A stretch of DNA of 64,000 nt from an uncultured Gammaproteobacteria bacterium (GCA_964490105.1 CAZAZU010000001.1:22706-86705); one strand, 5' to 3'. Counted from the stretch's first letter, positions 2,857-57,894 are shown. A program made the numbers and translations. The notes: generated by a model from the letters alone, not told the origin.

Positions 2857-3999
2857 ATGGACCACCAAAAATCTTCTTTCTCCACATCTCTCACCTTTGA
2901 CGACATTTTATTAGTTCCCAATTACGCTGGTTTTTCTCGTGATGAGATAGATCTTTCTACCAGACTCACAAAAAAAATTAAATTAACACTTCCTTTTGTT
3001 TCGTCTCCTATGGATACAGTTACAGAATTTGAACTTGCAACTGCGCTTGCGCAGCTTGGGGGAATTGGAATTATTCACAGAAATTTATCAATAAAAGATC
3101 AGGCAGATCAAGTAGGTAAGGTAATTAAAAAAGGTTTGATAGTCGGTGCTGCAGTGGGAGCTGGGAAAGGATTTGAGGAAAGAGTGGAGGCATTAGTAAA
3201 AGCAAATGTTACTATAATAGTGGTAGATAGTGCACATGGATATAGCAAGCAAATAATTGATGTAATTAAATTTATAAAGAAGAAATACCCAAAGCTTGAG
3301 ATTATTGCTGGAAATATAGCGACTGCTGATGGAGCTAAAGCTTTAATTCAGGCTGGGGCTGATGGACTTCGTGTTGGGATGGGTCCGGGAGCAATCTGTA
3401 CTACTAGGGTAATTTCAGGAATGGGAGTTCCTCAGGTAACTGCAATTATGGAAACCGTAAAAGTCGCAGATAAATTTGGAATTCCAGTTATTGCTGATGG
3501 AGGAATTAAATATTCTGGAGATATGGTAAAAGCGCTAGCTCTAGGAGCATCCGCTGTGATGATGGGAAGCTTTTTTGCTTCATGTGAGGAAGCACCTGGA
3601 GAAAAAATAAAATTATCTAAAGATCAGGTTCCGCACAGGTTTCAAAGTATTTTTGAGAAAAATAAAAAGACATATTTATTTAAATCTTATAGAGGTATGG
3701 GATCAGTTGCAGCTATGCAAAAAGGCGCAAAAATAAAATCTGAAGGAGAGTTTCATGGAAAAAGTTATAAAGAAAGAGTTTTAGTCGCTGAAGGAGTAGA
3801 AGGATTGGTCCCTGTTAAAGGTTCCGTTTCCGATTTACTTGATCAGGCAACTGGGGGAATAAAATCTGGAATGTATTATGTTGGAGCTAAGAATTTAAAG
3901 GAGCTTAAGAAAGCTAAATTTACTAAGATAACACAAGCGTCATTAACGGAATCACATCCTCATGACGTACTTATCACAAATGCAGGACAAAACTACTAA
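2857..3999 (+). CDS. guaB: IMP dehydrogenase, short form lacking CBS domains
   Basis: [14 protein letters not shown], catalytic loop [36 protein letters not shown]; followed by guaA. Confidence 0.88.
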
Positions 4000-22530: not shown

Positions 22531-22559
22531 TTTTTGTCAACCCCGATTAAATCGGGGTT
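22531..22559 (-). promoter_or_regulatory. 17-bp palindrome CCCCGATTTAATCGGGG fused to TTGACA -35, 16-nt spacer, TAAACT, 7 nt to ATG (copy 1; minus orientation)
   Basis: 26-nt exact identity with copy 2 at 44439-44464. Confidence 0.6.
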
Positions 22560-23458: not shown

Positions 23459-23507
23459 TTAATGAGAAATCTATTCTAACACAATACCGCAATATGTTTA
23501 AAAACTC

Positions 23508-23529
23508 ATATATCGATATATCGATATAT
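23508..23529. repeat. palindromic tandem ATATATCGATATATCGATATAT in the ddl / 23611 divergent region
   Basis: Two overlapping copies of the perfect palindrome TATATCGATATA. Confidence 0.5.
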
Positions 23530-23610
23530 GATGCAGGGGTTAAATTGGCTTAGGAATTTTAGAAAAGAGTACTATTTGATTAGCCGTAGTTAATAAGGTA
23601 GAATGCAGGC

Positions 23611-24279
23611 ATGAATAGACCGCTAGACGCAGAACCAGGAGTAGGTCTACCACTTCCTCCAGCAGATGGCCCTAAAGATCGGGGTGACTTAAGGTCTCCT
23701 AGGGAGCGAATGACCACTCTCGTGGAAGAAATGTTGGCATATAGAGCAAATCCTGGTGTAAGTTATACTTTTTTTAGATTTCCAGATCTTGCACCTCAAG
23801 AACTTTTAACCAGACTTAAAGATGAGGTTTCATTAGGATTATTAGTTCCAGATGGGGAGAGATTGCCTCAGCCCGCGCGAGACGATGTAATAAGAATTGC
23901 AGACTCTAATAAACTAACGGGTGTTATTGTGACAGCTGATCGAGCTAGAGAGGGAAACTTTCGAAGAAGAAAAGTTGGAATTGAATTCTTAGCTGAATAT
24001 GAAGGGGGAGACCGGATCGTTAAGACTGCTCAAAAGTTAATTCTAGAGGATGATTCAAAAGAGCCAGTAAGAATTACGATGCGTAGGTCAGCTTTAGTTG
24101 ATCTGAATTCAGAAGAAGGAGGCTACGACTCAGGCAAGGCTATACCAGTCTCCGATGAACAAGCCACTGGTTTCCTCGGAATCTTAGAAGAACTTTTTGA
24201 AGCATGGAAGAAAAGTCCAGAAGGAATTGACAGAGCAAAGCGCAAGCATGTAGCTTCTCATCTCTCCAAAACTCCTTAA
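23611..24279 (+). CDS. hypothetical protein (222 aa), Lys-poor; leaderless after TTGATT-17-TAGAAT
   Basis: ORF plus promoter read from sequence; no motif recognised. Confidence 0.55.
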   Translation: MNRPLDAEPGVGLPLPPADGPKDRGDLRSPRERMTTLVEEMLAYRANPGVSYTFFRFPDLAPQELLTRLKDEVSLGLLVPDGERLPQPARDDVIRIADSNKLTGVIVTADRAREGNFRRRKVGIEFLAEYEGGDRIVKTAQKLILEDDSKEPVRITMRRSALVDLNSEEGGYDSGKAIPVSDEQATGFLGILEELFEAWKKSPEGIDRAKRKHVASHLSKTP

Positions 24280-34481: not shown

Positions 34482-34501
34482 TGCCTTCGTTTGCAAATTA
34501 T

Positions 34502-34533
34502 AACAGCCCTGCAATAAGGGCTGTTATTTTTTT
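34502..34533 (+). terminator. rho-independent terminator AACAGCCCT-gcaata-AGGGCTGTT + TTTTTTTT
   Basis: 9-bp GC-containing stem, 6-nt loop, 8-T run. Confidence 0.8.
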
Positions 34534-38893: not shown

Positions 38894-38914
38894 GTGGTAA
38901 CCTTCAAGGCTTAT

Positions 38915-38944
38915 AAACAAACCGCACGCTTATGCGGTTTGTTT
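38915..38944 (+). terminator. terminator hairpin AAACAAACCGCA-cgctta-TGCGGTTTGTTT, probably bidirectional
   Basis: 12-bp perfect stem, T-rich 3' side; lies between convergent genes. Confidence 0.65.
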
Positions 38945-38945
38945 A

Positions 38946-39437
38946 TTAATTAACTGAGCTTGAAGCGGAATTTTTCCCAATCAGTATTTTATTTAGCAAA
39001 TTAACGCTTTCATTTAGTGCGGATTTAAAAAACATTTTATCTTTTTTATCTATTTTTATTTTTATGTGATAGGTTCCTTTAGTATCCCTCTTCCAATCCC
39101 ATTCAGTGACACCGGTAAATGAAGCTTTACGATATCCGTTTTTTACTTTTATCTGACATAAGTATTCAAGAATTATGTGTTCAAATAAATGTCCAATTTC
39201 TGTATTTCTGACTTCTTCTCTGAATGGAAGATTTGAATCATTAAAGCATTCATTGTGTAGGACCTGAGGCAACGTCCTTTCTAAGATTGAATGTGTTAGC
39301 GGAAGATGTTTGGTATGAAAATGAGGAGTATCTAAGAGCATGGTAATGCTCGTTTCCTGGGAAGAAAAATTATTTACTGCCAATTTATACTGACCGTAAT
39401 TAGTAAATGTCTGGTTAATATCTTGGATAATGCTCAT
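38946..39437 (-). CDS. hypothetical protein (163 aa)
   Basis: ORF with native composition; no motif recognised. Confidence 0.5.
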   Translation of the reverse strand: MSIIQDINQTFTNYGQYKLAVNNFSSQETSITMLLDTPHFHTKHLPLTHSILERTLPQVLHNECFNDSNLPFREEVRNTEIGHLFEHIILEYLCQIKVKNGYRKASFTGVTEWDWKRDTKGTYHIKIKIDKKDKMFFKSALNESVNLLNKILIGKNSASSSVN

Positions 39438-44006: not shown

Positions 44007-44432
44007 ATGAATATAGAAGTAAATTATTTAGCACTAATTTTAGCAGTGGTTGTTTCCATGGTAATCGGTTTTGCTTATTACATGAATCCAATTATTGCAA
44101 AACCATGGATGAAATTAATGGGCTATTCTAAAGACGACGTGAAGCCTACTGGAAATGAGATGGCAAAAATGTATGGAACAAGCGCAGTGCTTGCTCTAAT
44201 AACAGCTTTTGTTTTATCCCACGTAATGACTATGTCAATTTCGTATTTTAATTATTCTCCAGTTATGACTGGGGTGATTAGTGCATTTTGGATGTGGTTA
44301 GGTTTTATAATGCCAGTACAAGCAACAGATGTTTTATTTAGTAAAAAACCCATGAAGCTTTTTGCGATTAATACTTTTCATCAATTGCTTTCGTTACTAG
44401 GAATGGGAATTGTGATTGGATTGGTTAGATAG
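44007..44432 (+). CDS. DUF1761-family membrane protein
   Basis: MNIEVNYLALILAVVVSMVIGFAYY...KPW; SD AGAGGAGGTG upstream of the ATG at 44007 (ORF-track start 43977 is less likely). Confidence 0.65.
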   Translation: MNIEVNYLALILAVVVSMVIGFAYYMNPIIAKPWMKLMGYSKDDVKPTGNEMAKMYGTSAVLALITAFVLSHVMTMSISYFNYSPVMTGVISAFWMWLGFIMPVQATDVLFSKKPMKLFAINTFHQLLSLLGMGIVIGLVR

Positions 44433-44438
44433 TGTCGT

Positions 44439-44483
44439 CCCCGATTTAATCGGGGTTGACAAAAGCTATAAAAACAATAAAAT
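44439..44483 (+). promoter_or_regulatory. 17-bp palindrome CCCCGATTTAATCGGGG fused to TTGACA -35, 16-nt spacer, TAAAAT, 6 nt to purK ATG (copy 2; plus orientation)
   Basis: 26-nt exact identity with copy 1; same spacing and leaderless geometry. Confidence 0.6.
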
Positions 44484-44489
44484 CAAAAC

Positions 44490-45623
44490 ATGATTTACCC
44501 CGCAACGATTGGCATAGTAGGCGGTGGACAGCTCGCTAAAATGCTCACAATTGCTGCAAAGAAAATGGGGTTTAGTGTTATTGTTACAGATCCGACTCCC
44601 GGAAGTCCTGCTGGTCAAGTTGCTGATCGCGAGTTAGTCGGTGGTTATAAAGACGAAAAAGTAACCCGTGAATTAGCTAAGCTTTCTGACATAATTACTG
44701 TTGATGCAGAATTTGTTAATGATAAAGTTTTATCAGAAATTGAAAAATCAGGAAAGCCTGTTCATCCATCTCCCAAGACAATCTCGATTATTAAAGATAA
44801 ACTTCGGCAAAAAGAATTTCTAAGAAAAAATAGTATTGCTACAGCAGAATTTGTTCCTGTTAAAAATACAAACGACATAAAAAAAGCCATTAAGAAGTTT
44901 GGGTTACCAATTTTATTAAAAGCTCGGGAAGATGCTTACGACGGAAAGGGCAACTTCGTTATAAAAAAGGAATCAGATGTTGAAGAGGGTTTAAAGAAGC
45001 TTGAAGGTAGATCTCTTTATGTTGAGAAATTTGTGCCATTTGTTAAAGAGCTTGCAATAATGGTCGCAAGAACACCAGGTGGGGAGATCGCCGCATATCC
45101 GGTGGTTGAGACAATTCATGTAAATAATGTATGTGATACTGTAATTGCGCCGGCAAAAGTTTCGAAGAAAGCTGTAAAAAATGCCACAAATTTAGCAAAA
45201 AAAACTATGAAGCAGCTTAAGGGGGCTGGAGTTTTTGGAATTGAAATGTTTTTAATTAAAGGGGATAAGGTTCTCATTAACGAAATAGCTCCACGTGTTC
45301 ATAACTCAGGTCATTACACAATTGAGGCGAGTATTACATCTCAATTTGAACAGCATATACGGGCAATTACAGGATTGCCGCTTGGTTCAACTGATTTAAT
45401 GGTAAAATCTGCAGTAATGAAAAATATTTTGGGAGAGAGAGAAGGATCAGGGTATCCTATGGGAGTTGAAAAAGCATTGAAGATTTCTGGAGTTTCATAT
45501 CATTTATATAATAAAAAAGATTCGAGGGTTGGAAGAAAAATGGGACATATTACAGTATTTGGAGATAGTGAGAAGATTAATTTGCAAAAAGCGAATAAAG
45601 CAAGAAAAGCATTAATAATATGA
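44490..45623 (+). CDS. purK: N5-carboxyaminoimidazole ribonucleotide synthase
   Basis: ATP-grasp; TIGIVGGGQLAKML; purE follows. Confidence 0.88.
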   Translation: MIYPATIGIVGGGQLAKMLTIAAKKMGFSVIVTDPTPGSPAGQVADRELVGGYKDEKVTRELAKLSDIITVDAEFVNDKVLSEIEKSGKPVHPSPKTISIIKDKLRQKEFLRKNSIATAEFVPVKNTNDIKKAIKKFGLPILLKAREDAYDGKGNFVIKKESDVEEGLKKLEGRSLYVEKFVPFVKELAIMVARTPGGEIAAYPVVETIHVNNVCDTVIAPAKVSKKAVKNATNLAKKTMKQLKGAGVFGIEMFLIKGDKVLINEIAPRVHNSGHYTIEASITSQFEQHIRAITGLPLGSTDLMVKSAVMKNILGEREGSGYPMGVEKALKISGVSYHLYNKKDSRVGRKMGHITVFGDSEKINLQKANKARKALII

Positions 45624-46135
45624 AAAAAGAAGTAGCAATTGTAATGGGATCTGATTCGGATCTTTCTGTTATGAAAGATGCTGCTGAAATATTAGAAAGT
45701 TTTGGAATAGGTTATTATCTTTCAATTGTCTCGGCGCATAGAACACCCCAGAGACTATTTGATTTCTCAAAATCTGCAGAAAAAAAAGGATTTAAAGTTA
45801 TTATTGCAGGAGCAGGTGGATCAGCACATCTGCCTGGGATGATTGCTTCTCTTACTCCGCTTCCTGTAATCGGAGTGCCAATTAGAGGAAAATCTTTTGA
45901 AGGATTTGATTCATTAATGTCTATTGTTCAAATGCCTCCAGGAATTCCCGTTGCAACTGTTGCAGTAAATGGTGCAAAAAACGCAGGAATTTTAGCAGCA
46001 AGTATTATCGGCATAAGTAATAAGAAGGTTCTAGGAAAAGTAGCCGAATTTAAAAATAATTTAGAGAAAGAAGTTTTAAAAAAAGTTCAGAAAATTGAAA
46101 AAGTAGGATTTCAGAAATATCTTGATGAAAAATAA
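45620..46135 (+). CDS. purE: N5-CAIR mutase
   Basis: VAIVMGSDSDLSVM, AGGSAHLPGMIAS. Confidence 0.92.
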   Translation: MKKEVAIVMGSDSDLSVMKDAAEILESFGIGYYLSIVSAHRTPQRLFDFSKSAEKKGFKVIIAGAGGSAHLPGMIASLTPLPVIGVPIRGKSFEGFDSLMSIVQMPPGIPVATVAVNGAKNAGILAASIIGISNKKVLGKVAEFKNNLEKEVLKKVQKIEKVGFQKYLDEK

Positions 46136-47582
46136 TTCTCAAAACGAAAAAGTTAACGTTGTAGACAAAAATTTAAAAACTCTTTATAAAACCACGAAAA
46201 AAGAAGCTCACGAAAAAGGATTACTTCATAAGACTGTTATAGCTGAGGTGGTTGATTCCAAAGGGAGATATTTGCTCGTTAAACAAGCTCCAGACAGACA
46301 AGACGCGGGAAAATTTGTTTCTCCAGTTGGAGGGCATGTAAGATCGAATGAAACAGATGAAGAAGCTTTAGAAAGAGAGGCGTTTGAAGAATTAGGAATT
46401 AAAAACTTCAGCCATGAATATTTGGGGAATATTATTTTTAACAGAAAAATACTTGGGAGAGCGGAAAATCATTACTTTATTATTTATAAAATAAAATGGG
46501 ACAAGAAAATAAAATTAAATCATGAGTCAGTTGAAAGCAAGTGGTTTACTGTTAAGGAGTTAAAATTTGCTTTAAAAAATAATAGAGAAATTTTTGGAGC
46601 AGCATATTTAACTTGTCCGCTTGAAATGTATTTAGGAACCGTTAAAAAAAGTATGGAGAAAAATAAAAATGCATTAATTAAAACAGTTGATTTAAAAGGA
46701 TTTGGGAAAAAATATCAAGGAAAAGTTAGGGATTGCTACATAAAGGGAGATAAAAGAATTCTCGTTACAACTGATCGAATTTCTGCGTTTGATGTTATTC
46801 TTGGATTTATTCCTGGGAAAGGTGCGGTGCTAAATCAGTTAGCTGCTTTTTGGTTTGAAAAAACTTCGGACATAATCCCGAATCATCTTATTTCAGTTCC
46901 TCATCCGAATGTGAGTATTGTAAAAAACGTAAAATTAATTCCTATTGAAATGGTTGTAAGAGGTTATATCTCTGGTGTTACTAATACGTCAATATGGGGT
47001 AGTTATCAAAAGGGGGAGAGGGTTATTTATGGAATAAAATTTCCTGATGGACTATCTAAAAATCAAAAATTAAAAACCCCAGTTATTACTCCTACGACTA
47101 AAGCAGAGTCAGGGCACGATGAAAGATTAACTGAGAAAGAAATTATTGATCGAAAAATAGTGACTCCTGGAATTTGGAAGCAAATGAAAAAAGCAGCATT
47201 AGAATTATTCGAAAGAGGAACTAAAATTTGTGAAAAAGGCGGAATAATTTTAGTTGATACAAAATATGAATTTGGACTAGACTCAAGCGGGAAGTTAATT
47301 TTAATTGATGAAATACACACTCCTGATTCTTCAAGATTTTGGATTAAAAAAACTTATAAAGCGCGAATAAAGAAAGGGTTGGAACCGGAAAATTTCGATA
47401 AAGAATTTTTAAGACTTTGGTATGCAAAAAGAGGTTATACCGGATCAGGAAAACCTCCGAAAATGCCGTCAGTACTTGCAAATCAAGTAAGCAAACGTTA
47501 TATTCAAATATATAAAAAGATCACCGGAAAAATACCTGAAAAAGAAGTGGTTCCATTAAGAGAATTACAGATTCAAATTTAG
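46122..47582 (+). CDS. purC: Nudix hydrolase domain fused to ADE1-type SAICAR synthetase
   Basis: Nudix box GGHVRSNETDEEALEREAFEELGI; then GKVRDCYI...LVTTDRISAFDV, MVVRGYISG, ILVDTKYEFG, HTPDSSRFW. Confidence 0.85.
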   Translation: MMKNNSQNEKVNVVDKNLKTLYKTTKKEAHEKGLLHKTVIAEVVDSKGRYLLVKQAPDRQDAGKFVSPVGGHVRSNETDEEALEREAFEELGIKNFSHEYLGNIIFNRKILGRAENHYFIIYKIKWDKKIKLNHESVESKWFTVKELKFALKNNREIFGAAYLTCPLEMYLGTVKKSMEKNKNALIKTVDLKGFGKKYQGKVRDCYIKGDKRILVTTDRISAFDVILGFIPGKGAVLNQLAAFWFEKTSDIIPNHLISVPHPNVSIVKNVKLIPIEMVVRGYISGVTNTSIWGSYQKGERVIYGIKFPDGLSKNQKLKTPVITPTTKAESGHDERLTEKEIIDRKIVTPGIWKQMKKAALELFERGTKICEKGGIILVDTKYEFGLDSSGKLILIDEIHTPDSSRFWIKKTYKARIKKGLEPENFDKEFLRLWYAKRGYTGSGKPPKMPSVLANQVSKRYIQIYKKITGKIPEKEVVPLRELQIQI

Positions 47583-47585
47583 CTG

Positions 47586-49004
47586 ATGACTTTACAAGAA
47601 CCAGACAAGATGAAGGAAAAATGCGCTGTTTTTGGCGTGTATGGTAGAAAAGGACTTCAAGCTGCAAGACTAACATACTTCGGTCTTTACACACTTCAGC
47701 ATAGGGGACAAGAAAGTTCAGGAATCTCTGCAACCAATGGAAAACAACTGCGCACTCATAAAGCAAATGGACTTGTTACCCAAGTATATAATGAGGAAAA
47801 TTTTAAAGAACTAAAAGGACATATGGCGATAGGGCATAACAGATACTCTACGTCTGGAGGAGTTCATGATTCTCATGCTCAGCCAGTAACATCCCGAAGG
47901 GCAATGCATGACATTTTAGTACTAGCGCATAATGGGAATTTGCCAACTGTAGATAATCTCTCATCTTTTTTAAGAGAGAAAGGTTTTTACACAGATGGTT
48001 TAAATGATTCTGAGTTAATGCATCAAGTAATTAGATATTTTCTTGTTAAAACGGGATCTTTAGAAGAAGCAATAAAAATGTCATTCCCAATGTTTAAGGG
48101 TGCATTTTCTCTTTTAGTAATGACAAAAGATAAAATTGCTGCAGTTAGAGATTCATACGGAATCAGGCCTTTGACTTTGGGGAAATTAGGAGGAGGTTAT
48201 GTATTTTCTTCTGAAACCTGCGCAATTGATACAGTGGATGGAAAATATATTAGAGACGTAAAACCAGGGGAAATGGTGGTGGTGGATTCATCAGGTTTGA
48301 AATCTTACCAGCTCGCTAAGCCAACGCCTAAATTAGATATATTTGAATTTGTGTATTTCGCTAGACCTGACAGTGCACTTCTGGGGAAAAGTGTATATGC
48401 TGTCAGAAGAAATATGGGAGTGCAGCTTGCGAAGGAGAATCCCATAAAAGCAGATGTAGTCATTCCAATTCCTGATTCATCAATTCCTGCAGCGATTGGA
48501 TATGCCGGAGCTCTAAAAATACCGCTTGAATTTGGCCTTACAAAGAACAGATATATTGGACGTACGTTTATTATGCCAGATCAGCATCTAAGAGAAAGAG
48601 GGGTAGAGATGAAGCATAATCCAATCAAGGAAATTATAAAAGATAAAAATGTTGTGGTAATTGATGACTCGATAGTTAGGGGAACTACAGCAAAAAAGCT
48701 TGTGTTAATGTTAAAGAAAAATGGAGCAAAAAAAGTTCATATCATAAGCTCTTCTCCGCCAGTTAAATTTCCAGACTTTTATGGAATCGATACTCCATCA
48801 CAGAAAAATTTAATTGGAGCAAACATGAGTATCCCTAAAATAAAAAAATATATAGGAGCTGATTCGCTATATTTTCTTTCATATAAAGGTCTTTTAAAAG
48901 CAATTGGAGTTCCTGAGAAGGAATTATGTACGGCATGTTTTACCGGCGAATACCCGATTGATATTGGTAAAAAGCGAAAACTTATTAGGTACGAAAACAC
49001 ATGA
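47586..49004 (+). CDS. purF: amidophosphoribosyltransferase
   Basis: N-terminal CAVFGVYG nucleophile region, PRTase loop VVVIDDSIVRGTTAKK. Confidence 0.9.
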   Translation: MTLQEPDKMKEKCAVFGVYGRKGLQAARLTYFGLYTLQHRGQESSGISATNGKQLRTHKANGLVTQVYNEENFKELKGHMAIGHNRYSTSGGVHDSHAQPVTSRRAMHDILVLAHNGNLPTVDNLSSFLREKGFYTDGLNDSELMHQVIRYFLVKTGSLEEAIKMSFPMFKGAFSLLVMTKDKIAAVRDSYGIRPLTLGKLGGGYVFSSETCAIDTVDGKYIRDVKPGEMVVVDSSGLKSYQLAKPTPKLDIFEFVYFARPDSALLGKSVYAVRRNMGVQLAKENPIKADVVIPIPDSSIPAAIGYAGALKIPLEFGLTKNRYIGRTFIMPDQHLRERGVEMKHNPIKEIIKDKNVVVIDDSIVRGTTAKKLVLMLKKNGAKKVHIISSSPPVKFPDFYGIDTPSQKNLIGANMSIPKIKKYIGADSLYFLSYKGLLKAIGVPEKELCTACFTGEYPIDIGKKRKLIRYENT

Positions 49005-49597
49005 AGTCTCTCGCTGTTTTAGTTTCCAATGTGGGTACAGGATCAAATCTTCAAGCGATAATTGACGCTATAAATAATAAAAAAATATCAGCAAAGATTA
49101 GTGTTGTAATAAGTTCAGATACTGACGCATTTGGTTTAGTTCGAGCAGAGAAAAATAAAATAGCTACTGAAATCTCAAATAAAAAAGATCTTCTTAAAAC
49201 TCTAAATAAATATGAAATCGACTATGTGTGTTTAGCGGGTTGGAGATTAATTATTGACAATGAAGTATTAAGAACTTACGAAAATAAAATATTAAACCTT
49301 CATCCGGGTTTGATTCCGGATAGAATTAATGGAAATGTTAAAAACCCAGATGGAACAATTGGTCTTTGGAATAGAGGTAAATTAACAGATGTTGCAATTG
49401 AAAATTTTTTGAATAATAATGCAACTTATGCTGGATCATCAATCCATTTTCTTTCTAATGAATTTGATTTTGGAAAAGTCCTAGATCGAACTTTTGAAAA
49501 AATAAAAAAGTCCGATACCGTTGAAACTTTGTATAAAAGATTAAAAGTTAAAGAAAATAAATTATACGTTAATGTATTAAAAAAACTTTGCAAATGA
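49001..49597 (+). CDS. purN: phosphoribosylglycinamide formyltransferase
   Basis: CLAGWRLI, NLHPGLIPD. Confidence 0.75.
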   Translation: MKSLAVLVSNVGTGSNLQAIIDAINNKKISAKISVVISSDTDAFGLVRAEKNKIATEISNKKDLLKTLNKYEIDYVCLAGWRLIIDNEVLRTYENKILNLHPGLIPDRINGNVKNPDGTIGLWNRGKLTDVAIENFLNNNATYAGSSIHFLSNEFDFGKVLDRTFEKIKKSDTVETLYKRLKVKENKLYVNVLKKLCK

Positions 49598-49676
49598 ATC
49601 CCGTTAAAAATAATTATTTAAAAAGTATCTGTTTTAATTTGATCTTTAATCCTTCAAGAAAGGAATTTTTAACGGG

Positions 49677-50975
49677 ATGAATATTTTAATATTAGGATCA
49701 GGCGGCAGGGAGCATGTGTTATCAGATGCATACGCGAAAAATAAAAAAGTAAAGAAAATATTTGTAGCGCCCGGAAATCCATTCATAGATTTTTCAAATA
49801 AAAAAGTTAAATCTCTTTTAGACATTCCTTCAACTGACTTTGAAAAAATAAAAGATACAATCGAGAAATATAAGATTGATCTAGTTGATGTTGCACAGGA
49901 TGATCCTATTGCGTTAGGATTCGTGGATAAGTTAACAGACTTAGGAATAAAAGCATTTGGCCCCACAAAAAATGCCTCAGAAATAGAATGGAGTAAGGAG
50001 TGGTCCAGAAATTTTATGCTTAAGTATCATCTTCCCACACCGCATTTTAAAAGTTTCAATTCACAAAGTCGAGGAATTTTTTATGTTAAATCCTTAAGAG
50101 AGCAGCCACTCTATATTAAAGCATCAGGGCTCGCCCTTGGTAAAGGAGCTATTAGAGCTAGTAATAAAAAGGAGGCTATTCAGGCAATTAAGCAAATGAA
50201 AATTTTCGGTAAAGCTGGAGAAACATTTGTAGTAGAGGAAGCAATGAGTGGAGAAGAGTTTTCTTTATTTGCTATTTGTGATGGGGAAAATTATAAAATT
50301 ATCGGAAGCGCACAGGATCATAAAACAGCATCTAATGGTGACATTGGACCAAATACTGGTGGAATGGGATGCGTAACGAATCCTAAAATTGTAACGCCCA
50401 AAATTATAAACGAGATCGAGAAAAAAATTTTAATTCCATTTATGAAAGGAATGAAAAAGGAAAAAAGAGATTACTCTGGTATTTTATATGTTGGCGGTAT
50501 GGTTACGGAAAAAGGAGTAAAGATTGTAGAATTTAATTCCAGGTGGGGCGATCCCGAAGCTGAAGTATTAATTCCGGGAATATTGTCTGATTATTTAAGT
50601 ATTGTGGAATCCGTTTTAGATAAAAAACTTAATAAATTAAAAATAAAAACTGATAAATTGGTAAGAGTGAGTGTTGCTGGATGCAGTAATGGTTATCCAA
50701 TAGACTATTCAAAGGTAAAAGGAAAAAGAATAATTGGGCTTGAAAAAGCTATTAAATTGCCAAACATAAAAGTTTATGGCGCAGGAATTTCAAAGAATGA
50801 AAATAAATTCGTCGCAGGGGGTGGAAGAGTCTTTCATTTGACAGGAGCAGGATTTACATTATCTCAAGCAAGAATGAGGGCTTACGGAGCGTTGTCTTTA
50901 ATAACAATTGAAAACAATAACTTACATTACAGAACCGACATCGGATGGAGAGATTTAGAAAGAGAAAATCTATGA
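49677..50975 (+). CDS. purD: phosphoribosylamine--glycine ligase
   Basis: MNILILGSGGREHVLSDAY, ATP-grasp core. Confidence 0.9.
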   Translation: MNILILGSGGREHVLSDAYAKNKKVKKIFVAPGNPFIDFSNKKVKSLLDIPSTDFEKIKDTIEKYKIDLVDVAQDDPIALGFVDKLTDLGIKAFGPTKNASEIEWSKEWSRNFMLKYHLPTPHFKSFNSQSRGIFYVKSLREQPLYIKASGLALGKGAIRASNKKEAIQAIKQMKIFGKAGETFVVEEAMSGEEFSLFAICDGENYKIIGSAQDHKTASNGDIGPNTGGMGCVTNPKIVTPKIINEIEKKILIPFMKGMKKEKRDYSGILYVGGMVTEKGVKIVEFNSRWGDPEAEVLIPGILSDYLSIVESVLDKKLNKLKIKTDKLVRVSVAGCSNGYPIDYSKVKGKRIIGLEKAIKLPNIKVYGAGISKNENKFVAGGGRVFHLTGAGFTLSQARMRAYGALSLITIENNNLHYRTDIGWRDLERENL

Positions 50976-53776
50976 TTCTTACTGTTAGAGTTGCTTCAAA
51001 AAACGAAAGTGAGGATTTAAAGGGGATAGATGTATCTCGTAGAATAAAAGATCCAAGTGTTACAAAAGTGAGATCCGTTAGGGTTTATAGGCTTGAGGGA
51101 ATTAGTAAAAAAACTGCAAAATTTTTAGCAGAAAAATTATTATCAGAATCTATTAACCAAAAATATACAATTGATGAACAAATATTTAATGCCCGTTCTA
51201 AAATAGAAGTTGCATATAAGCCGGGTGTTATGAACCCGGAAGTATCATCAATTTTAAAATCCGCAAAAGATTTAAAAGTAAAACTATTGGCAGCTGATTC
51301 GTCATGGGAGTATCATTTTTTTGGCGCTCTTAGCTTGGAGAATATTAACGAGCTAGGACTATATAATCCTTTAATTGAATATTTAGTGGATAAGCCTCCA
51401 AGGACATTACAAATTTCAGGAAGAGTTGGACCTACGAATACTGTTTTGATTCGGGATTGTTCGGATGATGATCTAATGGAACTTTCTAAGGATAAATTAT
51501 TTTTAAATTTATCAGAGATGAAAGTAATTCAGGAGTATTTCAGGAAAATCAAAAGAGATCCAAATGATATTGAGCTTGAAACTCTTGCACAAACCTGGAG
51601 TGAGCATTGTGCGCATAAAACTTTTAAAGCAAATTTAATAATCGATGGGGAAAAGAAAAAACCGTTAATTGAAAGAATTAAAACTGAAGCTTTAAAACAC
51701 CCTAAAAATATTGTTTCAGCATTTGGAGATAATTCTGGCGTAATGAAATTTTATGATGGGTATTCGATTTGCGGTAAAGTTGAGACTCATAATAGTCCTT
51801 CAGCAATTGAGCCATACGGAGGAGCGATGACTGGAAGTGGGGGAGTTTTTAGAGATGTGCTTGGTACTGGACAAGGAGCTAAGACAATTGCTAGTACTGA
51901 TATATTTTGTTTTGCAGATCCTTCATTACCTAAAAAAGATTTGCCGACAGGGTGTCTTAACCCAAATTACTTACTTAAAAGAGTAGTTGAGGGAGTTAGA
52001 GACTATGGAAATAGAATGGGAATCCCCACAAATAATGGTTCAGTTCATTTTCATAATGATTTTCGCGCGAAACCTACTGTAATTGTTGGAGCATATGGAA
52101 TAATTCCCACAAAAAAAGCAAAAAAGGGAGTGCCGATTAAAGGAGATTTGATAGTCGCTGTTGGGGGAAGGACTGGGCGCGACGGAATTCATGGTGCGAC
52201 TTTTTCATCAGCTGAAATGACTGACAGGACAATTTCTGTAAATTCTTCAGCAGTTCAAATTGGTAATGCTATCGAGGAAAAAAGAATGTTCGATGCGATA
52301 ATTGAGGCCCGTGATTTTGGTTTAATTAGAGCCATAACCGATTGCGGAGCGGGTGGTTTTTCTTCGGCAGTTGGTGAAATAGGATCTAAGACTGGAGTAA
52401 GAGTAGATCTAGCAAATGCTCCGCTTAAATATCACGGGCTGTCTCCTTGGGAGATTTGGGTTTCTGAGTCACAAGAAAGAATGGTAATTGCGATTGCTAA
52501 AAAAGATATAAAAAAATTCTTAGAAATTTGTAAAAAATATAACGTAGAAGCAGCGATCTTAGGAAACTTTACTGATACTAAAAAGCTTGAAGTTTTTTAT
52601 GGAAAAAAACAAATTGCTAACTTATCAATGAAGTTTTTACATGATGGTTTACCTCAAAGGTTGATGATAGGCAAAAAAACTAAAATTGAACACTCAAAGA
52701 AAGAACCTAAGATTCCAAAAAAAGAATCAGAATGGATTGAAATATTTAAAAAGATTTTGTCTCATGGAAATATAAATTCTAAAGAGCCGATTGTTAGAAT
52801 GTATGATCACTCAGTCCAGGGTACAAATGATTTGCAGCCTTATAGTGGAGTAAAGCTAGATTCTCCCAATGACAGTGTAGTGATTCGTCCAATTCTTAAT
52901 AAAAAATATGCAATGGTTTTATCTCATGGTTTGAACCCAATTTTGAATAGAATTAATCCTTATGACGGGAGTATTTGGGCAGGGGTTGAGGCATTATCAA
53001 ATTATGTAAGCGTAGGAGGAAATATTGAGGAAGCCTCTCTTATAAATAATTATATCTGGCCTTTTCCAGATGAAGAATCTTTATATAGTCTTGATCGATC
53101 AGTAGACGCAGTAGTGGACATTATGAGGACTTTAAAAACTCCAGTTATTTCAGGAAAGGATAGTTTGTCGTCAACTTACAGAAAGGGAGATACAGTTATA
53201 AAGATTCCACCGGTTCTTTGCATTTCTGTTTTTGGCAGAATACCGGACGCGACAAAAACTGTATCTTCTGATTTTAAGAAAACAAATTCTACTGTTGTTC
53301 TTGTTGGGAATTTAGATACGAATTCCATGGGGGGATCTGTTTATTTTGATGTAAATAATTTACTTGGAGAAAAAGTTCCCAGAATAGACCTAAAAGATTT
53401 TTCTAAAATTGCAAAATCAATAAACAAGGGAATTGTTAATGGGGATATATTATCATGTCATGATGTTTCAGAAGGAGGCTTGCTTGCAGCTCTTTTTGAA
53501 ATGTGTATCGGAGGAGACATGGGGGTGAATTTTCGACTTCCTAAAAATAAAAGAGAGGATTACTTTCTTTTTAACGAAACAGCGGGAACTTTCTTAGTAG
53601 AAGTTGAAAGCAGAGAAGTGGCTAAAAAACTTTTTAAAAATGTTAATTATTTAATAGTTGGAGAAACTAAAAAAGAAAAAAATATTGAAGTTTTAAATAG
53701 TAAAAAAATATTTAGCGCTAGTTTACCGGATCTAAAAAATGTTTGGCAAAAACCAATGAGGAAAATTTTTCCATGA
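50945..53776 (+). CDS. purL: phosphoribosylformylglycinamidine synthase: PurS-like N-terminal domain fused to PurL (FGAM synthase II)
   Basis: N-terminal ILTVRVASK...VRSVRVYRLEG (PurS-like); then TWSEHCAHKTFKA and AIR-synthase-related repeats; real start probably MILTV at 50972. Confidence 0.85.
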   Translation: MERFRKRKSMILTVRVASKNESEDLKGIDVSRRIKDPSVTKVRSVRVYRLEGISKKTAKFLAEKLLSESINQKYTIDEQIFNARSKIEVAYKPGVMNPEVSSILKSAKDLKVKLLAADSSWEYHFFGALSLENINELGLYNPLIEYLVDKPPRTLQISGRVGPTNTVLIRDCSDDDLMELSKDKLFLNLSEMKVIQEYFRKIKRDPNDIELETLAQTWSEHCAHKTFKANLIIDGEKKKPLIERIKTEALKHPKNIVSAFGDNSGVMKFYDGYSICGKVETHNSPSAIEPYGGAMTGSGGVFRDVLGTGQGAKTIASTDIFCFADPSLPKKDLPTGCLNPNYLLKRVVEGVRDYGNRMGIPTNNGSVHFHNDFRAKPTVIVGAYGIIPTKKAKKGVPIKGDLIVAVGGRTGRDGIHGATFSSAEMTDRTISVNSSAVQIGNAIEEKRMFDAIIEARDFGLIRAITDCGAGGFSSAVGEIGSKTGVRVDLANAPLKYHGLSPWEIWVSESQERMVIAIAKKDIKKFLEICKKYNVEAAILGNFTDTKKLEVFYGKKQIANLSMKFLHDGLPQRLMIGKKTKIEHSKKEPKIPKKESEWIEIFKKILSHGNINSKEPIVRMYDHSVQGTNDLQPYSGVKLDSPNDSVVIRPILNKKYAMVLSHGLNPILNRINPYDGSIWAGVEALSNYVSVGGNIEEASLINNYIWPFPDEESLYSLDRSVDAVVDIMRTLKTPVISGKDSLSSTYRKGDTVIKIPPVLCISVFGRIPDATKTVSSDFKKTNSTVVLVGNLDTNSMGGSVYFDVNNLLGEKVPRIDLKDFSKIAKSINKGIVNGDILSCHDVSEGGLLAALFEMCIGGDMGVNFRLPKNKREDYFLFNETAGTFLVEVESREVAKKLFKNVNYLIVGETKKEKNIEVLNSKKIFSASLPDLKNVWQKPMRKIFP

Positions 53777-54555
53777 AAAAACCAAGAGCAATTATTATAA
53801 AAGCAGATGGGATTAACAGAGATGAGGATATGGTTTTCGCATTTAATCTTGCTGGAGCTGATGCAAAATTGGTTCACATTAATGATTTAAGAAGCAAAAA
53901 AGAAAAACTTTCTGATTATCAAATTTTAGGTATTCCCGGAGGTTTTGCTTATGGAGATGACATAGTATCGGGGAAAATTTTAGCAACAGAAATGGTGGCT
54001 TATCTTGGTGATGAGATTCGAAAATTTGTAAAAAGAAAAAACACAGCGGTAATCGGAGTCTGTAATGGGTTTCAGGTTTTAGTGCGCACCGGTCTTGTTC
54101 CGTTTGGAAATATTGGAGAAATGGATGTGACACTTGCTAATAACGATTCAGGACACTTCGAATGCAGATGGATAAAAGTAAAAGTAGAATCAAATTCAAA
54201 AAGTAGATTTTTAGAGGGAATGGAAAATGAGATTTTGTGGTATCCGGTTGCACACGGAGAAGGAAAGTTTTATGCAGATGACAAGATAATTAAAAAAATA
54301 GAAGATGAAAATTTAGTTGCCTTTCGTTATGTAGACGAAAAAGGAAATCCTACGCAAAAATATCCAGATAATCCAAATGGGTCAATTAATGCAATTGTCG
54401 GAGTAACTGATGAGTCTGGAAGAATCTTGGGCCTTATGCCGCATCCTGAGTGTTTTGTCCGTATTGAACAACATCCCAACTGGCGTCGTGGTTTAATCGA
54501 ATCTCCTCAAGGTCTACCTCTTTTTAAAAATATTGTAAATTTTGTAAAACAATGA
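53743..54555 (+). CDS. purQ: FGAM synthase glutaminase subunit
   Basis: GVCNGFQVL catalytic Cys, HPE; likely start MKKPRAI at 53773. Confidence 0.88.
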   Translation: MAKTNEENFSMKKPRAIIIKADGINRDEDMVFAFNLAGADAKLVHINDLRSKKEKLSDYQILGIPGGFAYGDDIVSGKILATEMVAYLGDEIRKFVKRKNTAVIGVCNGFQVLVRTGLVPFGNIGEMDVTLANNDSGHFECRWIKVKVESNSKSRFLEGMENEILWYPVAHGEGKFYADDKIIKKIEDENLVAFRYVDEKGNPTQKYPDNPNGSINAIVGVTDESGRILGLMPHPECFVRIEQHPNWRRGLIESPQGLPLFKNIVNFVKQ

Positions 54556-55649
54556 GAAAAATCACATATAAATCTTCGGGTGTTGATTATTCAAAATTAG
54601 ATCCAATTAAAAAACTTGCTCAAGATTCAGCTAGAAAAACCTCAAAAAATTTTCCGAAGAGTTTTAATGAAATAGCTGATAGCAGAGGTGAGTCTGCATT
54701 TGTTTGGAAACAGGGAAATCAATTGATGGCATTTGTCATGGAGGGACTCGGAACGAAAAGTCTAGTAGCTGACGGAGTTTACGAGCAATCAAAGAAATCA
54801 TTTTATGGGAATATTGCTCAGGACACTGTTGCAACTATTATTAATGATCTTGTAAGCATTGGCGCAAAGCCATTAATTTTAAATGCTTATTGGGCTGACG
54901 CTGGAGATGGATTTTTACAAGATCCTAAGAGAATGAAAGATTTTATAGTTGGATGGGAAAAAGCTTGTAATCTGTCAGGTGTTGTTTGGGGGGGAGGAGA
55001 GACACCAACATTAAAAGGAATTATTGAAACAAAGTCTGTAGATTTGGGAGGATCAGCTGTAGGATTAATTGATAGTAGTAGGAATTTAATTTCTGATAAA
55101 AAAATAAAAGCTGGGGATCGAATAATTTTAATAAAAAGTAATGGAGTGAATGCAAATGGAATTAGTTTGACACGAGCGATTGCCAAAAAACTTCCTAAAG
55201 GGTACCTGACAAAATTACCAAGTGGAAAATTGTATGGAGAAAGTTTGTTAACTCCTTCAAATATTTATGCAAAAGTAATTTTGGATTTGCAGAAAAATAA
55301 TATAGATATTCATTACGTTTCAAATATTACAGGGCACGGTGTAAGAAAGATTATGAGAGGACGTCCAAAATTTACTTATATAATTGAAAAGATTTACAAA
55401 CCCCAACCCGTTTTTGACTTCATTCAAGCACATGCAGGTTTATCGGATTATGAAATGTATGAAACATATAACATGGGACAGGATTACTGTTTAATTATTC
55501 CAGAAAATGACGTTAATAAATGTTTAAAAATAATTAGTAAAAATAAATTTATAGCTATTAGTGCTGGGTATGTAGAAAAAGGGGAGAAGCAAGTAATAAT
55601 AAAATCTAAAAACTTAATTTACAAAGGTGAAACTTTAGACTTAAGATAA
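54552..55649 (+). CDS. purM: phosphoribosylformylglycinamidine cyclo-ligase (AIR synthase)
   Basis: SGVDYSKLDPIKK; AIRS N/C domains. Confidence 0.88.
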   Translation: MRKITYKSSGVDYSKLDPIKKLAQDSARKTSKNFPKSFNEIADSRGESAFVWKQGNQLMAFVMEGLGTKSLVADGVYEQSKKSFYGNIAQDTVATIINDLVSIGAKPLILNAYWADAGDGFLQDPKRMKDFIVGWEKACNLSGVVWGGGETPTLKGIIETKSVDLGGSAVGLIDSSRNLISDKKIKAGDRIILIKSNGVNANGISLTRAIAKKLPKGYLTKLPSGKLYGESLLTPSNIYAKVILDLQKNNIDIHYVSNITGHGVRKIMRGRPKFTYIIEKIYKPQPVFDFIQAHAGLSDYEMYETYNMGQDYCLIIPENDVNKCLKIISKNKFIAISAGYVEKGEKQVIIKSKNLIYKGETLDLR

Positions 55650-55650
55650 A

Positions 55651-57894
55651 TTATTTCTTCCGATAAATGAAAACTAAAGTTGCCTTATCAGCTGTTACTT
55701 CATGAATCAATTTATATTCCTTTTTAATTTCACTATCATCAAATCCTTCTCTTAAAACATTAAAATAATTTACAACTACATAATCATATTTTTTATTTTC
55801 ATTATATTTTTCAGCCTGATATTCGCTGTAGTATGGAAAAGAATGGAGAGGAGAAATTGCAAGACCAACTTTAGAATCTTTAGGTGCATTATCTCTTAGA
55901 TAAATTCCGGCTTCTCTGTTTCCCTGACCCCACGATCCAATTTGGAAAAGACGGGAATCATAAACTCCATTTACTCCGCCTGGGAGAATATTAAAATAAT
56001 CCAAATAATATGGAGTTATGCTTTTTAGAATTATTAAAAAATAAATTATTAGAGCAAGGATAGCAAAAAATTTAATTTTAAATTTGTTTTTAAACATTTC
56101 TAGACTAAATTCAAGACCAATTGCTGCGATTAATGCTAGCGGAGCATAAACTTGAATAATGTAGCGAAGACCATGCTGTTTGAATGGATAAAGAGATTGA
56201 AAGAAGGGAAGCATGAACCAAACAAGTACTGCATATAGAACAAATTTTTTTCTAATATCTATCGCCTTCATTCCGATAAAAAATAAAGATATAATTAAAA
56301 ATGGCGTTGTTATTAAAAAGTAAACTGGGTAATAGACGATTGGCACCAGCATTAGTCTTCCAAAAAATATTTCAGGGGGAGGGAGTTTAACTTCATTTGA
56401 AAACCACATAGCTTTTTCAATGGCAATTGCATCGTTTAAATTTAAGAATGCCATAGGCCAAAGAAGAATAAATGTAATACAGGAAATTATAAAAATTGAA
56501 AACAGTGGTATGATTAATTGTTTTAAAAAAATTGTTTTATTTTTTTTATCTTTTAGAAAATACCAAATAAGATAAATTACTAAAAATAATGGATAAATAA
56601 AAATATTTGTTTGTTTTACTCCTAATGCGAGTCCAGTAAATATACCAGTCAAAAATAAAGTTTTATAAGAAAATTTATGGAGCAAGTTTACAAAAAGAAA
56701 AACCGATGCTGTAAAGAAAAACATCACGAGACTTTCAAGAGTCGCTAATTGAGAATACCCTAAGAATGTAGGTAGCATGCTTAAGATAATTCCAGCGGTG
56801 AACCCAACAAATGGAGAAATATATTTCCAACCAAAAAGTGCAATTAATATAACTGAAAGCGTAGAAAATAAAACAGCTACAAGTCTTGCATGGGTATAAT
56901 CATAGCTATAAATAGGTGTTCCATTTTTATCAAAATTTTGAATATCGAAAGAAGATGCAAGTCCATATAGATATCTACCAATCGGTGGATGATCAAAGGT
57001 AAATTTAAAGAATGGATTATTAAAATCTCCATCAATAATCAGATTATTCATCGTATATCCATTTTCAGAATATGCGCCTTCGTCCCAAGTCCTGCCCATC
57101 TCATTAAGATTCCAGAATCTTAGAGCTAGAGTTAGAGCGATTAGCAGGGAGATAGATATTATTTTTATGTTCCTGGGAGTTTTAAATCTAATTGCTAATA
57201 TATTTATTAAAGATGTTAAGAGTTCTCTATTTCCATATGATGATCTTCCAAATTGTCTTTCGACAAAAGTTGTTGGAACTTCAGAAATTTTAAAATTATT
57301 TTTTTTAAGTTTATATGCTGTTTCTGAAAGAACAATAAATCCGCTGGATTCAAGTTTTATTTGTACTAAAAATTCCAACGCATTTCTACTGTAGAGTCTA
57401 TAGCCATTTGTATAGTCAGAAAGCTTTAAGTTTAATAGTACACTTAAAAATTTGTTAATAATTTTACTCATCACAACCCGCCACATTGCCCATTTTATTA
57501 TTTTACTTTCTGATAAATATCTAGAGCCAACCACTAAGTCAGTATTATCTTTTTTTATTTTTTCGATAAAGCTTTTTGCTTCTTTTGGATCATGAGAAAG
57601 GTCTGCGTCCATCTCAAAAGCATGTGTTATTTTTTTATCTTTTAATGCAATTTTAAATCCTTCTATGACTGCGCTTCCTCTTCCCATCTTTTTTTTGCGA
57701 GGAAAATATATGACATTTTTTTTACCAGATTTTGAGAGAAGTTTTTTAATTTTATTTTTTTCTAGAGAATTTGAATCGTCAACGATTATTATTTTAGACT
57801 TTGGGTGATGCTTTCGAATTTTATTGATGAGAAGAATAATATTTTCTGACTCATTATAAGAGGGGATAATAAATGCAACATTAATTAATTTCAT
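55651..57894 (-). CDS. fusion glycosyltransferase: N-terminal GT2 (Dpm1/ArnC-like polyprenyl-phosphate sugar synthase) + C-terminal multi-TM GT-C (PMT/ArnT-like, GT39/83)
   Basis: IIPSYNESENI, IVDDSNS, EMDADLSHDP (GT2); then ~12 TM helices with first-loop DEGAYSENGY motif. Confidence 0.75.
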   Translation of the reverse strand: MKLINVAFIIPSYNESENIILLINKIRKHHPKSKIIIVDDSNSLEKNKIKKLLSKSGKKNVIYFPRKKKMGRGSAVIEGFKIALKDKKITHAFEMDADLSHDPKEAKSFIEKIKKDNTDLVVGSRYLSESKIIKWAMWRVVMSKIINKFLSVLLNLKLSDYTNGYRLYSRNALEFLVQIKLESSGFIVLSETAYKLKKNNFKISEVPTTFVERQFGRSSYGNRELLTSLINILAIRFKTPRNIKIISISLLIALTLALRFWNLNEMGRTWDEGAYSENGYTMNNLIIDGDFNNPFFKFTFDHPPIGRYLYGLASSFDIQNFDKNGTPIYSYDYTHARLVAVLFSTLSVILIALFGWKYISPFVGFTAGIILSMLPTFLGYSQLATLESLVMFFFTASVFLFVNLLHKFSYKTLFLTGIFTGLALGVKQTNIFIYPLFLVIYLIWYFLKDKKNKTIFLKQLIIPLFSIFIISCITFILLWPMAFLNLNDAIAIEKAMWFSNEVKLPPPEIFFGRLMLVPIVYYPVYFLITTPFLIISLFFIGMKAIDIRKKFVLYAVLVWFMLPFFQSLYPFKQHGLRYIIQVYAPLALIAAIGLEFSLEMFKNKFKIKFFAILALIIYFLIILKSITPYYLDYFNILPGGVNGVYDSRLFQIGSWGQGNREAGIYLRDNAPKDSKVGLAISPLHSFPYYSEYQAEKYNENKKYDYVVVNYFNVLREGFDDSEIKKEYKLIHEVTADKATLVFIYRKK

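Follow-up and report, generated by a model that had tools for sequence, protein, structure and literature searches.

A 17-bp palindrome beside the predicted leaderless promoter of a Levybacteria-like purine operon as a candidate small insertion

Leaderless transcripts from sigma-70-type promoters have been described in Actinobacteria and Deinococcus-Thermus, the leaderless transcriptome of Mycobacterium tuberculosis being one example (cited in PMC12641261). Short dispersed palindromic repeats have likewise been described, as miniature inverted-repeat transposable elements (MITEs) such as the Correia elements of Neisseria (PMC3184786), as repetitive extragenic palindromic (REP) sequences and REPINs, mobilised by REP-associated tyrosine transposases (RAYT, TnpA-REP; PMC3184786, PMC3116915), and as the GC clusters of yeast and other mitochondrial genomes, for example GC42 (PMC4478555). 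Here, a 64,000-nt stretch of DNA (GCA_964490105.1, CAZAZU010000001.1:22706-86705; below, the window) was analysed with a focus on the promoter of its purine operon, which begins with purK. Directly upstream of the -35 hexamer of this promoter lies a perfect 17-bp palindrome (44439-44455, CCCCGATTTAATCGGGG; below, the dyad), whose arms can be read as 7 bp around a 3-nt centre or as 8 bp around one central base. With a probability of roughly 0.7, we read the locus as an old leaderless promoter that received a separate 17-bp palindromic insertion, the 4-bp target duplication of which regenerated the -35 box.

With the described leaderless systems, the purK locus shares consensus -35 and -10 hexamers, a start about 7 nt past the -10 hexamer, the absence of a Shine-Dalgarno (SD) sequence and a pattern that extends over the genome. 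It differs from them in its lineage, which is Candidate Phyla Radiation (CPR)/Microgenomates, and in that the starts are predicted from sequence. A literature search returned no description of leaderless genes in CPR/Microgenomates.

The dyad resembles MITEs in its inverted-repeat ends, target duplication, dispersed copies, filled and empty sites and positions near or within promoters. When it was compared with the defining features of MITEs, terminal inverted repeats (arms of 7-8 bp) with a target-site duplication (TSD) were found, and so was presence/absence at two loci, whereas the length, the internal core and a related insertion sequence (IS) were not: the dyad has 17 bp without an internal core versus tens to hundreds of bp, no parent IS was found, and the promoter would pre-exist and be rebuilt by the duplication, not supplied by the element. 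REPs are, like the dyad, very short, GC-rich, dispersed and hairpin-forming extragenic palindromes, but they have lengths of 21-65 bp, carry a conserved tetranucleotide adjoining the stem, usually number in the hundreds and are paired, and lack flanking target duplications (PMC3184786, PMC3116915). In contrast, the flanks of the dyad vary and are duplicated, neither the REP tetranucleotide nor the lack of duplication is seen, and about two copies occur per 64 kb. The mitochondrial GC clusters are also GC-rich hairpin palindromes with short direct repeats in an AT-rich compact genome, and they share with the dyad the presence or absence between relatives, the constraint on the stem and a mobilising mechanism that is unresolved (PMC4478555). 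They are organellar, 30-40 nt or longer and flanked by 2-3-nt repeats, whereas the dyad is bacterial, has 17 nt and 4-nt repeats, prefers TTGA and lies in -35 boxes. By this comparison, the mitochondrial GC-rich palindromic clusters would be the nearest analogues in behaviour. To our knowledge, no MITE or REP as small as this 17-bp palindrome has been described. The promoter and the locus are otherwise ordinary, and the insertion family is regarded as a variant of known small repeats.

Promoter conservation and predicted leaderless starts

The layout of the purK promoter is listed in Table 1. The upstream gene, a member of the DUF1761 family, ends with its stop codon at 44430-44432, and the -10 hexamer is separated from the purK ATG by the six G-free bases caaaac. 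Over the 28 nt that separate the -35 hexamer from the ATG, the number of G residues is zero, and an SD sequence is therefore impossible for purK. Due to the in-frame stop codon within the -10 hexamer, an earlier purK start is excluded as well, and the length of the PurK homologs, which is mostly exactly 377 aa, fits a start at 44490. The segment 44456-44483 was the top sigma-70-like match (11 of 12 positions) within 42-58 kb; promoter-like matches as a class are not enriched in these 16 kb (53 found versus 64 expected by shuffling).

The upstream regions of orthologous purK genes were compared for 12 loci with PurK proteins that are 76-95% identical. The -35 hexamer TTGACA is identical in all 12 orthologs and the spacer invariably has a length of 16 nt, with the sequence of its first half free to vary, while the -10 hexamer is TAAAAT in 11 orthologs and TAGAAT in one. 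The gap between the -10 hexamer and the start codon amounts to 6 nt in eight loci and to 9-10 nt in the other four, for which a leader of 2-4 nt is implied; one of the starts is GTG. Near-consensus hexamers at a spacing of 16 nt that are conserved while the surroundings drift support the assignment as a sigma-70-type promoter. The same evidence supports the prediction that the purine-operon promoter yields a purK mRNA starting on or beside the A of the ATG, and since the predicted start point coincides with this A, the mRNA would be leaderless.

The spacing seen at purK recurs throughout the window. A TAnnnT sequence ending exactly 6 nt before the start codon was found for 15 of the 66 window genes versus 1.6 expected from internal ATGs, and for 27 of the 66 when distances of 5-9 nt were considered. 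An SD-like core was detected for only 12 of the 66 genes, clear GGAGG sites precede a few internal genes only (27819, 33873 and 44008), and the 27 genes with neither signal mostly overlap their predecessor. Leaderless-type starts are the rule for first genes (examples in Table 1), often with TTGACA located 16-18 nt upstream. Among 20 instances of the 23-mer formed by the dyad and TTGACA, found in about 16 genomes, 11 are followed by the ATG of a long open reading frame (ORF) at 28-32 nt past the -35 hexamer, or 12 when L002 at +36 is counted (L numbers denote loci collected for comparison). The relatives of PurK are labelled Candidatus Levybacteria (Microgenomates/CPR), and the exact PurK protein is present on metagenomic contigs. 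In the genome of this ultra-small, Levybacteria-like bacterium, first genes thus appear, from these gene starts, to be expressed as leaderless mRNAs as a rule. For the annotation of CPR bacteria, the rule TAnnnT, about 6 nt, ATG would fix both start codons and promoters in genomes that are uncultured and poorly annotated.

A preliminary description of this DNA had placed the -10 hexamer TAAAAT at 44478-44483, 6 nt before the purK ATG and without an SD sequence, and had reported that the same arrangement is present twice. All of these coordinates were confirmed, and the 23-mer was found again on the minus strand at 22557-22535. The proposed promoter with a leaderless purK is backed, at the level of sequence, by the conservation in 12 orthologs, the genome-wide -10 geometry and the genes elsewhere that are preceded by the 23-mer.

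It is quite unlikely that purK is expressed mainly by read-through from the promoter of the upstream DUF2207 and DUF1761 genes, with TTGACA and TAAAAT as incidental matches and an mRNA that is not leaderless. No canonical terminator is located at 44432-44490, and the sequence is AT-rich with common promoter-like matches, as given above for the 16-kb region. However, the hexamers and their spacing are kept in all 12 orthologs, including L158, L160 and L161, in which DUF2207 and not DUF1761 is directly upstream, and L016 and L156, both of which are without DUF1761. Moreover, the genome-wide -10 peak 6 nt before starts is sharp, and there is no SD sequence for the translation of purK from a long transcript.

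Filled and empty sites of the dyad family

At the purK orthologs, the site of the dyad was found either filled or empty. Empty sites with the sequence (g/c)ccaTTGACA are present in L155, L159, L160, L161 and L162, and L156 is also without the dyad. The filled sites of L006 and L016 read ccaTTGA[CCCCGATTTAATCGGGG]TTGACA, which corresponds to the empty site extended by 17 bp and by another TTGA. The dyad is accordingly missing in six of the 12 orthologs and decayed in two more, namely L154, where it is 1 base shorter with an outer C changed to T, and L158, where the left arm is gone. The left flank is cattga in L006 and L016, catcaa in L008 and L010, and tgtcgt in the window. In the PurK tree the filled sites form one clade that is nested among empty sites, with the exception of L154; the upstream half of the L154 promoter resembles the filled clade, and this similarity suggests that the promoter may have been shaped by recombination.

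The other copy in the window is located on the minus strand, past the stop codon of ddl and before a 139-aa proline-rich membrane ORF. The two copies are identical over 26 nt (22557-22532 on the minus strand), and two occurrences of the 23-mer in the window compare with 0 expected in 100 shuffles. The ortholog L163 (Ddl 89%) is filled and has an intact TTGA duplication, cTTGA[dyad]TTGACA, whereas the orthologs L164 and L165 (76%) are empty, cTTGACA. The 16-nt spacing, the -10 hexamer TAAACT and the gap of 6-7 nt are kept in all three, and the central base of the dyad is T in the window versus A in L163. The ddl locus is an independent replicate of the filled/empty pattern, and the two window copies would be alike because two unrelated TTGACA boxes each received the same palindrome in their TTGA. 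As a separate feature of this locus, the region that separates ddl, which starts at 23458 on the minus strand, from the divergent gene at 23611 contains an AT-rich 26-bp palindrome, TCATATATCGATATATCGATATATGA (23506-23531), which could be an operator.

These patterns are consistent with the following course of events. The members of a dispersed palindrome family with the core CCGAT-TNA-ATCGG would act as insertions that duplicate 4 bp of their target and strongly prefer TTGA. One palindrome would have inserted in the TTGA of the purK -35 hexamer, and the duplicated TTGA together with the following CA would have re-formed TTGACA at the right-hand junction; because TTGACA was rebuilt by the duplication, the promoter would have survived the insertion. 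The left TTGA duplicate would later have decayed, to TCGT in the window, and the same event would have occurred independently at the promoter at 22535-22540. The dyad would then be a separate and later arrival and not a part of the promoter. The preliminary description had regarded dyad and promoter as one functional module, a view that finds no support, given the six purK promoters without a dyad and the two with a decayed one, the empty sites of L164 and L165 and the TSD-like repeats at unrelated sites. The insertion would add 21 bp, corresponding to two helical turns, and anything bound farther upstream would therefore keep the same face of the helix.

The reverse course, with TTGA-dyad-TTGACA as the original module and the dyad-less orthologs as products of precise deletions that the hairpin stimulated and that occurred repeatedly between the TTGA repeats, is very improbable. 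Loss of a palindrome through deletion between short flanking direct repeats is a known type of mutation, and the position of the filled L154 within an otherwise empty clade would fit such losses. The empty sites are, however, paraphyletic around a single filled clade, and at least four independent precise losses would therefore be needed versus 1-2 gains. In addition, the ddl locus repeats the same pattern, and the many different flanking repeats at unrelated sites, including non-promoter sites, fit insertion better than deletion.

Genome collections were scanned with the 23-mer, and 18 loci were obtained from many Levybacteria, Daviesbacteria and Microgenomates assemblies; most of these loci carry TTGA on the left side, too. 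Due to the fact that the 23-mer forced the presence of TTGACA, a second scan was performed with the bare 17-mer against metagenomes and viral contigs, and it yielded 140 non-redundant sites as an unbiased sample. A 4-nt direct repeat flush with the dyad was found at 25 of the 140 sites versus 1.8 expected, with a maximum of 7 in 1000 re-pairings. The repeat was TTGA/TCAA in 14 of the 25 cases versus a background of 1.3% (P=2e-20), and the remaining 11 were distributed over CAAA, TTAA, CAGA, TAAA, ACGA, TGAA and GCAC. The length of the repeats peaks sharply at 4 nt, with 36 cases versus 8 cases of 3 nt and 3 cases of 5 nt, and no base separates the repeats from the dyad. Of the TTGA-type sites obtained in the unbiased sample, about half precede a good -10 hexamer, one of them in front of the riboswitch of L028 described below; -35 boxes are thus a frequent landing site of the dyad, and others exist. 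An insertion of the IS200/IS605 type, 3' of a fixed target and without duplication, was given a lower probability, since the sequence of the flanking repeats is variable.

Variants of the dyad with covarying outer pairs were also detected (TCCCGAT..ATCGGGA, GTCCGAT..ATCGGAC and CTCCGAT..ATCGGAG), and L085 carries 9 copies of the 17-mer and of its TC..GA, GT..AC and CT..AG variants in 13.9 kb. In other organisms the 17-mer lies inside ribosomal RNA (rRNA) genes, namely a 23S rRNA gene (L085, 5452-9460) and a 16S rRNA gene (L130, 1417-3140), where the dyads replace variable-region sequence in comparison with L117, L082 and L081. A BLAST search of the joined flanks against all collected loci returned no clean filled/empty pairs for these rRNA-gene dyads. 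In L008, L010 and L019, the left flank TCAA/TGTCAA is the exact complement of the right TTGA(CA), resulting in perfect palindromes of 25-29 bp; these look like products of templated quasi-palindrome correction and not of point mutation. Among the other GC-rich hairpins of the collected loci, the excess of flush repeats is weak (12 of 594), and 2 of the 12 share the CCGAT...ATCGG core.

The use of the bare 17-mer as a specific signature was rejected, since canonical terminators with A and T tracts contain it as well, and so do other repeat families, high-GC contigs and phage contigs. A literature search with the dyad sequence returned primer matches only. Several further occurrences were recorded among the collected loci. 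In L028 (1963-2126), the dyad with TTGACA-17-TATGCT is located just upstream of an S-adenosylmethionine (SAM) riboswitch (Rfam RF00162), and in the related L119, the homologous region has a dyad insertion on its 5' boundary (9618). Two related palindromes occur in tandem in L108 (1024-1065), each of them followed by TTGA: [CCCCGATTTAATCGGGG]TTGA[CCCCGACTCAGTCGGGG]TTGA. On predicted viral contigs, the 17-mer was found in L144 and L153 (IMGVR_UViG_3300025015_000021) and in L140, L141 and L147; the copy of L153 has TTGA on both sides, and others are embedded in A-tract/T-tract terminators. In L020, inverted repeats of 189 bp (469-657 and 3437-3623), which consist of several small palindromes including the dyad, bracket a segment of 2.8 kb that may be a composite mobile element.

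A palindrome beside the -35 hexamer of a purine operon resembles an operator such as the PurR boxes of purine operons. In that case, a dimeric transcription factor would bind the palindrome, with its centre at about -43, and activate or repress purK and the other carrier promoters as a regulon. The perfect palindrome adjoining the -35 hexamer has a class-II-like position, four purK lineages have the identical dyad despite diverging spacers, and among the other carrier genes there is one with a link to purines, the IMP dehydrogenase-like ORF of L003. Such a regulon is nevertheless clearly unlikely. Unlike an operator, the dyad is not conserved with the promoter: six purK promoters lack it and keep the -35 hexamer, the spacing and the -10 hexamer, it is decaying in L154 and L158, and it is missing from L164 and L165. 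It is not confined to purine genes either, and the genes downstream are functionally unrelated (membrane proteins, antitoxin, thioredoxin). The same 17-mer inside rRNA genes and in many non-promoter contexts, as well as the varied TSD-like flanking repeats, would be unexpected for a binding site, and of the leaderless promoters in the window, which number about 20, only 2 have the dyad. A caution follows from this case, as a perfect palindrome touching the -35 hexamer at two promoters resembles an operator and the comparison marks it as a passenger.

When folded, the RNA stem at purK extends to 13 bp with 1 mismatch, and the extended hairpin at 44433-44461 reaches -18.8 kcal/mol (z = -4.8). 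Together with the location of the dyad, which in about 10 of 20 cases follows the stop codon of a gene on the same strand by 6-35 nt, the unexpectedly perfect conservation in four lineages and the ability of the flanks TTGA, TCAA and TTAA to pair with the downstream UUGA (UUGA pairs with UUGA via two G.U pairs), this hairpin would fit a terminator-promoter cassette, in which it ends or insulates the transcripts of the upstream gene and is kept for that purpose whatever its origin. Such a cassette is still rather unlikely. The stem is followed by UUGACAAAAG without a U tract and was not called by the terminator scan, whereas real terminators of the window have a U tract (34500-34527). Furthermore, the dyad is located between divergent genes in about six cases, and the empty orthologs are without any hairpin between DUF1761 and purK. 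The direct repeats CAGA, TTTG, ACGA and others cannot pair, for which reason an extension of the RNA stem was also rejected as the main cause of the upstream TTGA. The Rfam scan of the whole window returned zero family matches, which leaves both the purK leader and the dyad without a riboswitch or another known RNA motif. A secondary role of the dyad as an RNA hairpin that limits upstream read-through is possible on the basis of the folding model. The window also contains canonical intrinsic terminators at 34500-34527 and 38913-38946, which have long GC-containing stems with A and T tracts on either side.

Several points weigh against the interpretation as an insertion into an old promoter. 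The dyad shows 0 differences at its 17 positions among four lineages, the promoter spacers of which have 3-9 differences at 16 positions, and this hints at constraint, homogenisation or repeated insertion and not at a purely neutral passenger. The degenerate dyad of L154 lies inside an otherwise empty clade and needs recombination or a second event. No flanking repeat was found at 115 of the 140 dyads in the unbiased sample; many of these probably represent the hairpins of ordinary terminators, with a stem that matches the dyad by chance. In the collected loci, no candidate mobilising enzyme was found, and a search of their 1.17 Mb for a longer element with the termini CCCCGAT...ATCGGGG and matching 4-nt flanks returned only repeated whole dyads. 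Read-through from the upstream DUF2207 and DUF1761 genes into purK may also occur. Finally, no transposable element as short as 17 bp is known to be mobilised.

A wider proposal, to which we give somewhat less than an even chance, is that CCCCGAT-TNA-ATCGGGG and its relatives are active mobile palindromes of 17 bp, the smallest known with a target-site duplication, which spread in CPR bacteria, rRNA genes and perhaps phages and are moved by an activity encoded by the host or by an element. Under this proposal, the palindromes would accumulate in -35 boxes because of the TTGA preference, with the 4-bp duplication repairing the damage, and they may secondarily have been recruited as transcript-insulating hairpins. 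The combination of a 17-bp palindrome, a 4-bp duplication and a preference for TTGA may represent a new kind of small insertion, and if the mobility is true, the mechanism of insertion would be a new problem for mobile-DNA research.

The purine operon and its 77-bp insertion

The nine pur genes and the features described above are listed in Table 1.

Table 1. Coordinates of the features of the window at the purK and ddl loci and in the purine operon.
Feature	Position	Strand	Basis or remark
Left flank TGTCGT	44433-44438	+	position of the left TTGA duplicate in relatives; decayed here, partly complementary to the right flank (TGTC/GACA)
Palindrome CCCCGATTTAATCGGGG (putative inserted element)	44439-44455		filled versus empty orthologous sites; 4-nt direct repeats at many loci
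-35 hexamer TTGACA	44456-44461	+	first four bases TTGA (44456-44459) = putative right-hand copy of the target duplication
Promoter spacer, 16 nt	44462-44477	+	length invariant, first-half sequence variable in orthologs
-10 hexamer TAAAAT	44478-44483	+	contains in-frame stop TAA (44478-80)
purK ATG	44490-44492	+	predicted transcription start at or adjoining its A, 7 nt past the -10 hexamer (from geometry)
ddl copy, left flank TTAA	22561-22558	-	putative decayed left duplicate
ddl copy, dyad	22557-22541	-
ddl copy, -35 hexamer TTGACA	22540-22535	-	followed by a 16-nt spacer
ddl copy, -10 hexamer TAAACT	22518-22513	-	followed by 7 nt
ATG of the 139-aa Pro-rich membrane ORF	22505-22503	-
Leaderless-type start examples	2857, 8854, 16409, 19863, 24300, 30355, 33169, 62485, 63705		TAnnnT about 6 nt before ATG
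purK	44490-45623	+	NCBIfam match, gene calls
purE	45620-46135	+	NCBIfam match, gene calls
Nudix-purC fusion	46125-47582	+	NCBIfam match, gene calls
purF	47586-49004	+	NCBIfam match, gene calls
purN	49001-49597	+	NCBIfam match, gene calls
MITE-like insertion, 77 bp	49600-49676		12-bp perfect terminal inverted repeats CCCGTTAAAAAT
purD	49677-50975	+	NCBIfam match, gene calls
purL	50972-53776	+	NCBIfam match, gene calls
purQ	53773-54555	+	NCBIfam match, gene calls
purM	54552-55649	+	NCBIfam match, gene calls

Six of the junctions are overlapping, five by 4 nt (ATGA; purK/purE, purF/purN, purD/purL, purL/purQ and purQ/purM) and one by 11 nt (purE/purC), whereas purC and purF are separated by 3 nt and purN and purD by 79 nt. 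A convergent gene ends at 55651, 2 nt past purM. The consensus scan identified no leaderless-type -10 hexamer before the internal pur genes, and terminator-like matches in the region of the operon were at chance level. The order of the pur genes is kept in L154 and L155 and rearranged in L156 and L157; in L157, purK is internal and overlaps purB. The nine genes had been described beforehand as tightly packed with overlaps, which holds for the six overlapping junctions and the 3-nt gap and fails at the 79-nt gap between purN and purD. The accompanying suggestion of a single operon is supported by the overlaps, the lack of an internal leaderless-type -10 hexamer and the gene order shared with L154 and L155. 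Most likely, the eight downstream genes would be co-transcribed with purK and translated via stop/start overlap.

The gap of 79 nt between purN and purD is a MITE-like insertion. The 77-bp segment is bracketed by the direct repeat ATGAAT (49594-49599 and 49677-49682) and folds as a long hairpin, and it was found in a single copy in all of the sequence compared, comprising the window and the collected loci. L154 and L155 are uninterrupted at this junction, ttgcaaATGAatatttta, with the purN stop codon overlapping the purD start (ATGA), and the duplication of ATGAAT restores both the purN stop and the purD start. An internal promoter in the gap was rejected, since no leaderless-type -10 hexamer is present and the gap corresponds to the insertion. 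Two putative insertions in one operon, each with a duplication that rebuilds the signal that was hit, suggest that insertions in compact genomes survive only where the signal is restored.

Further observations concern single genes of the operon. The purC gene is fused to an N-terminal Nudix hydrolase domain (46125-47582), an arrangement that is kept in L154, L155, L159 and L160 and is not found in L156, L161 and L162. In L154 and L155, an ORF of 102 aa without a Pfam match is located between purQ and purM (L154, 20036-20344), and the corresponding region of the window (50972-55649) is without it. The PurL protein of the window is extended at its N-terminus by about 190 aa, a part that shows a faint PurS-like match.
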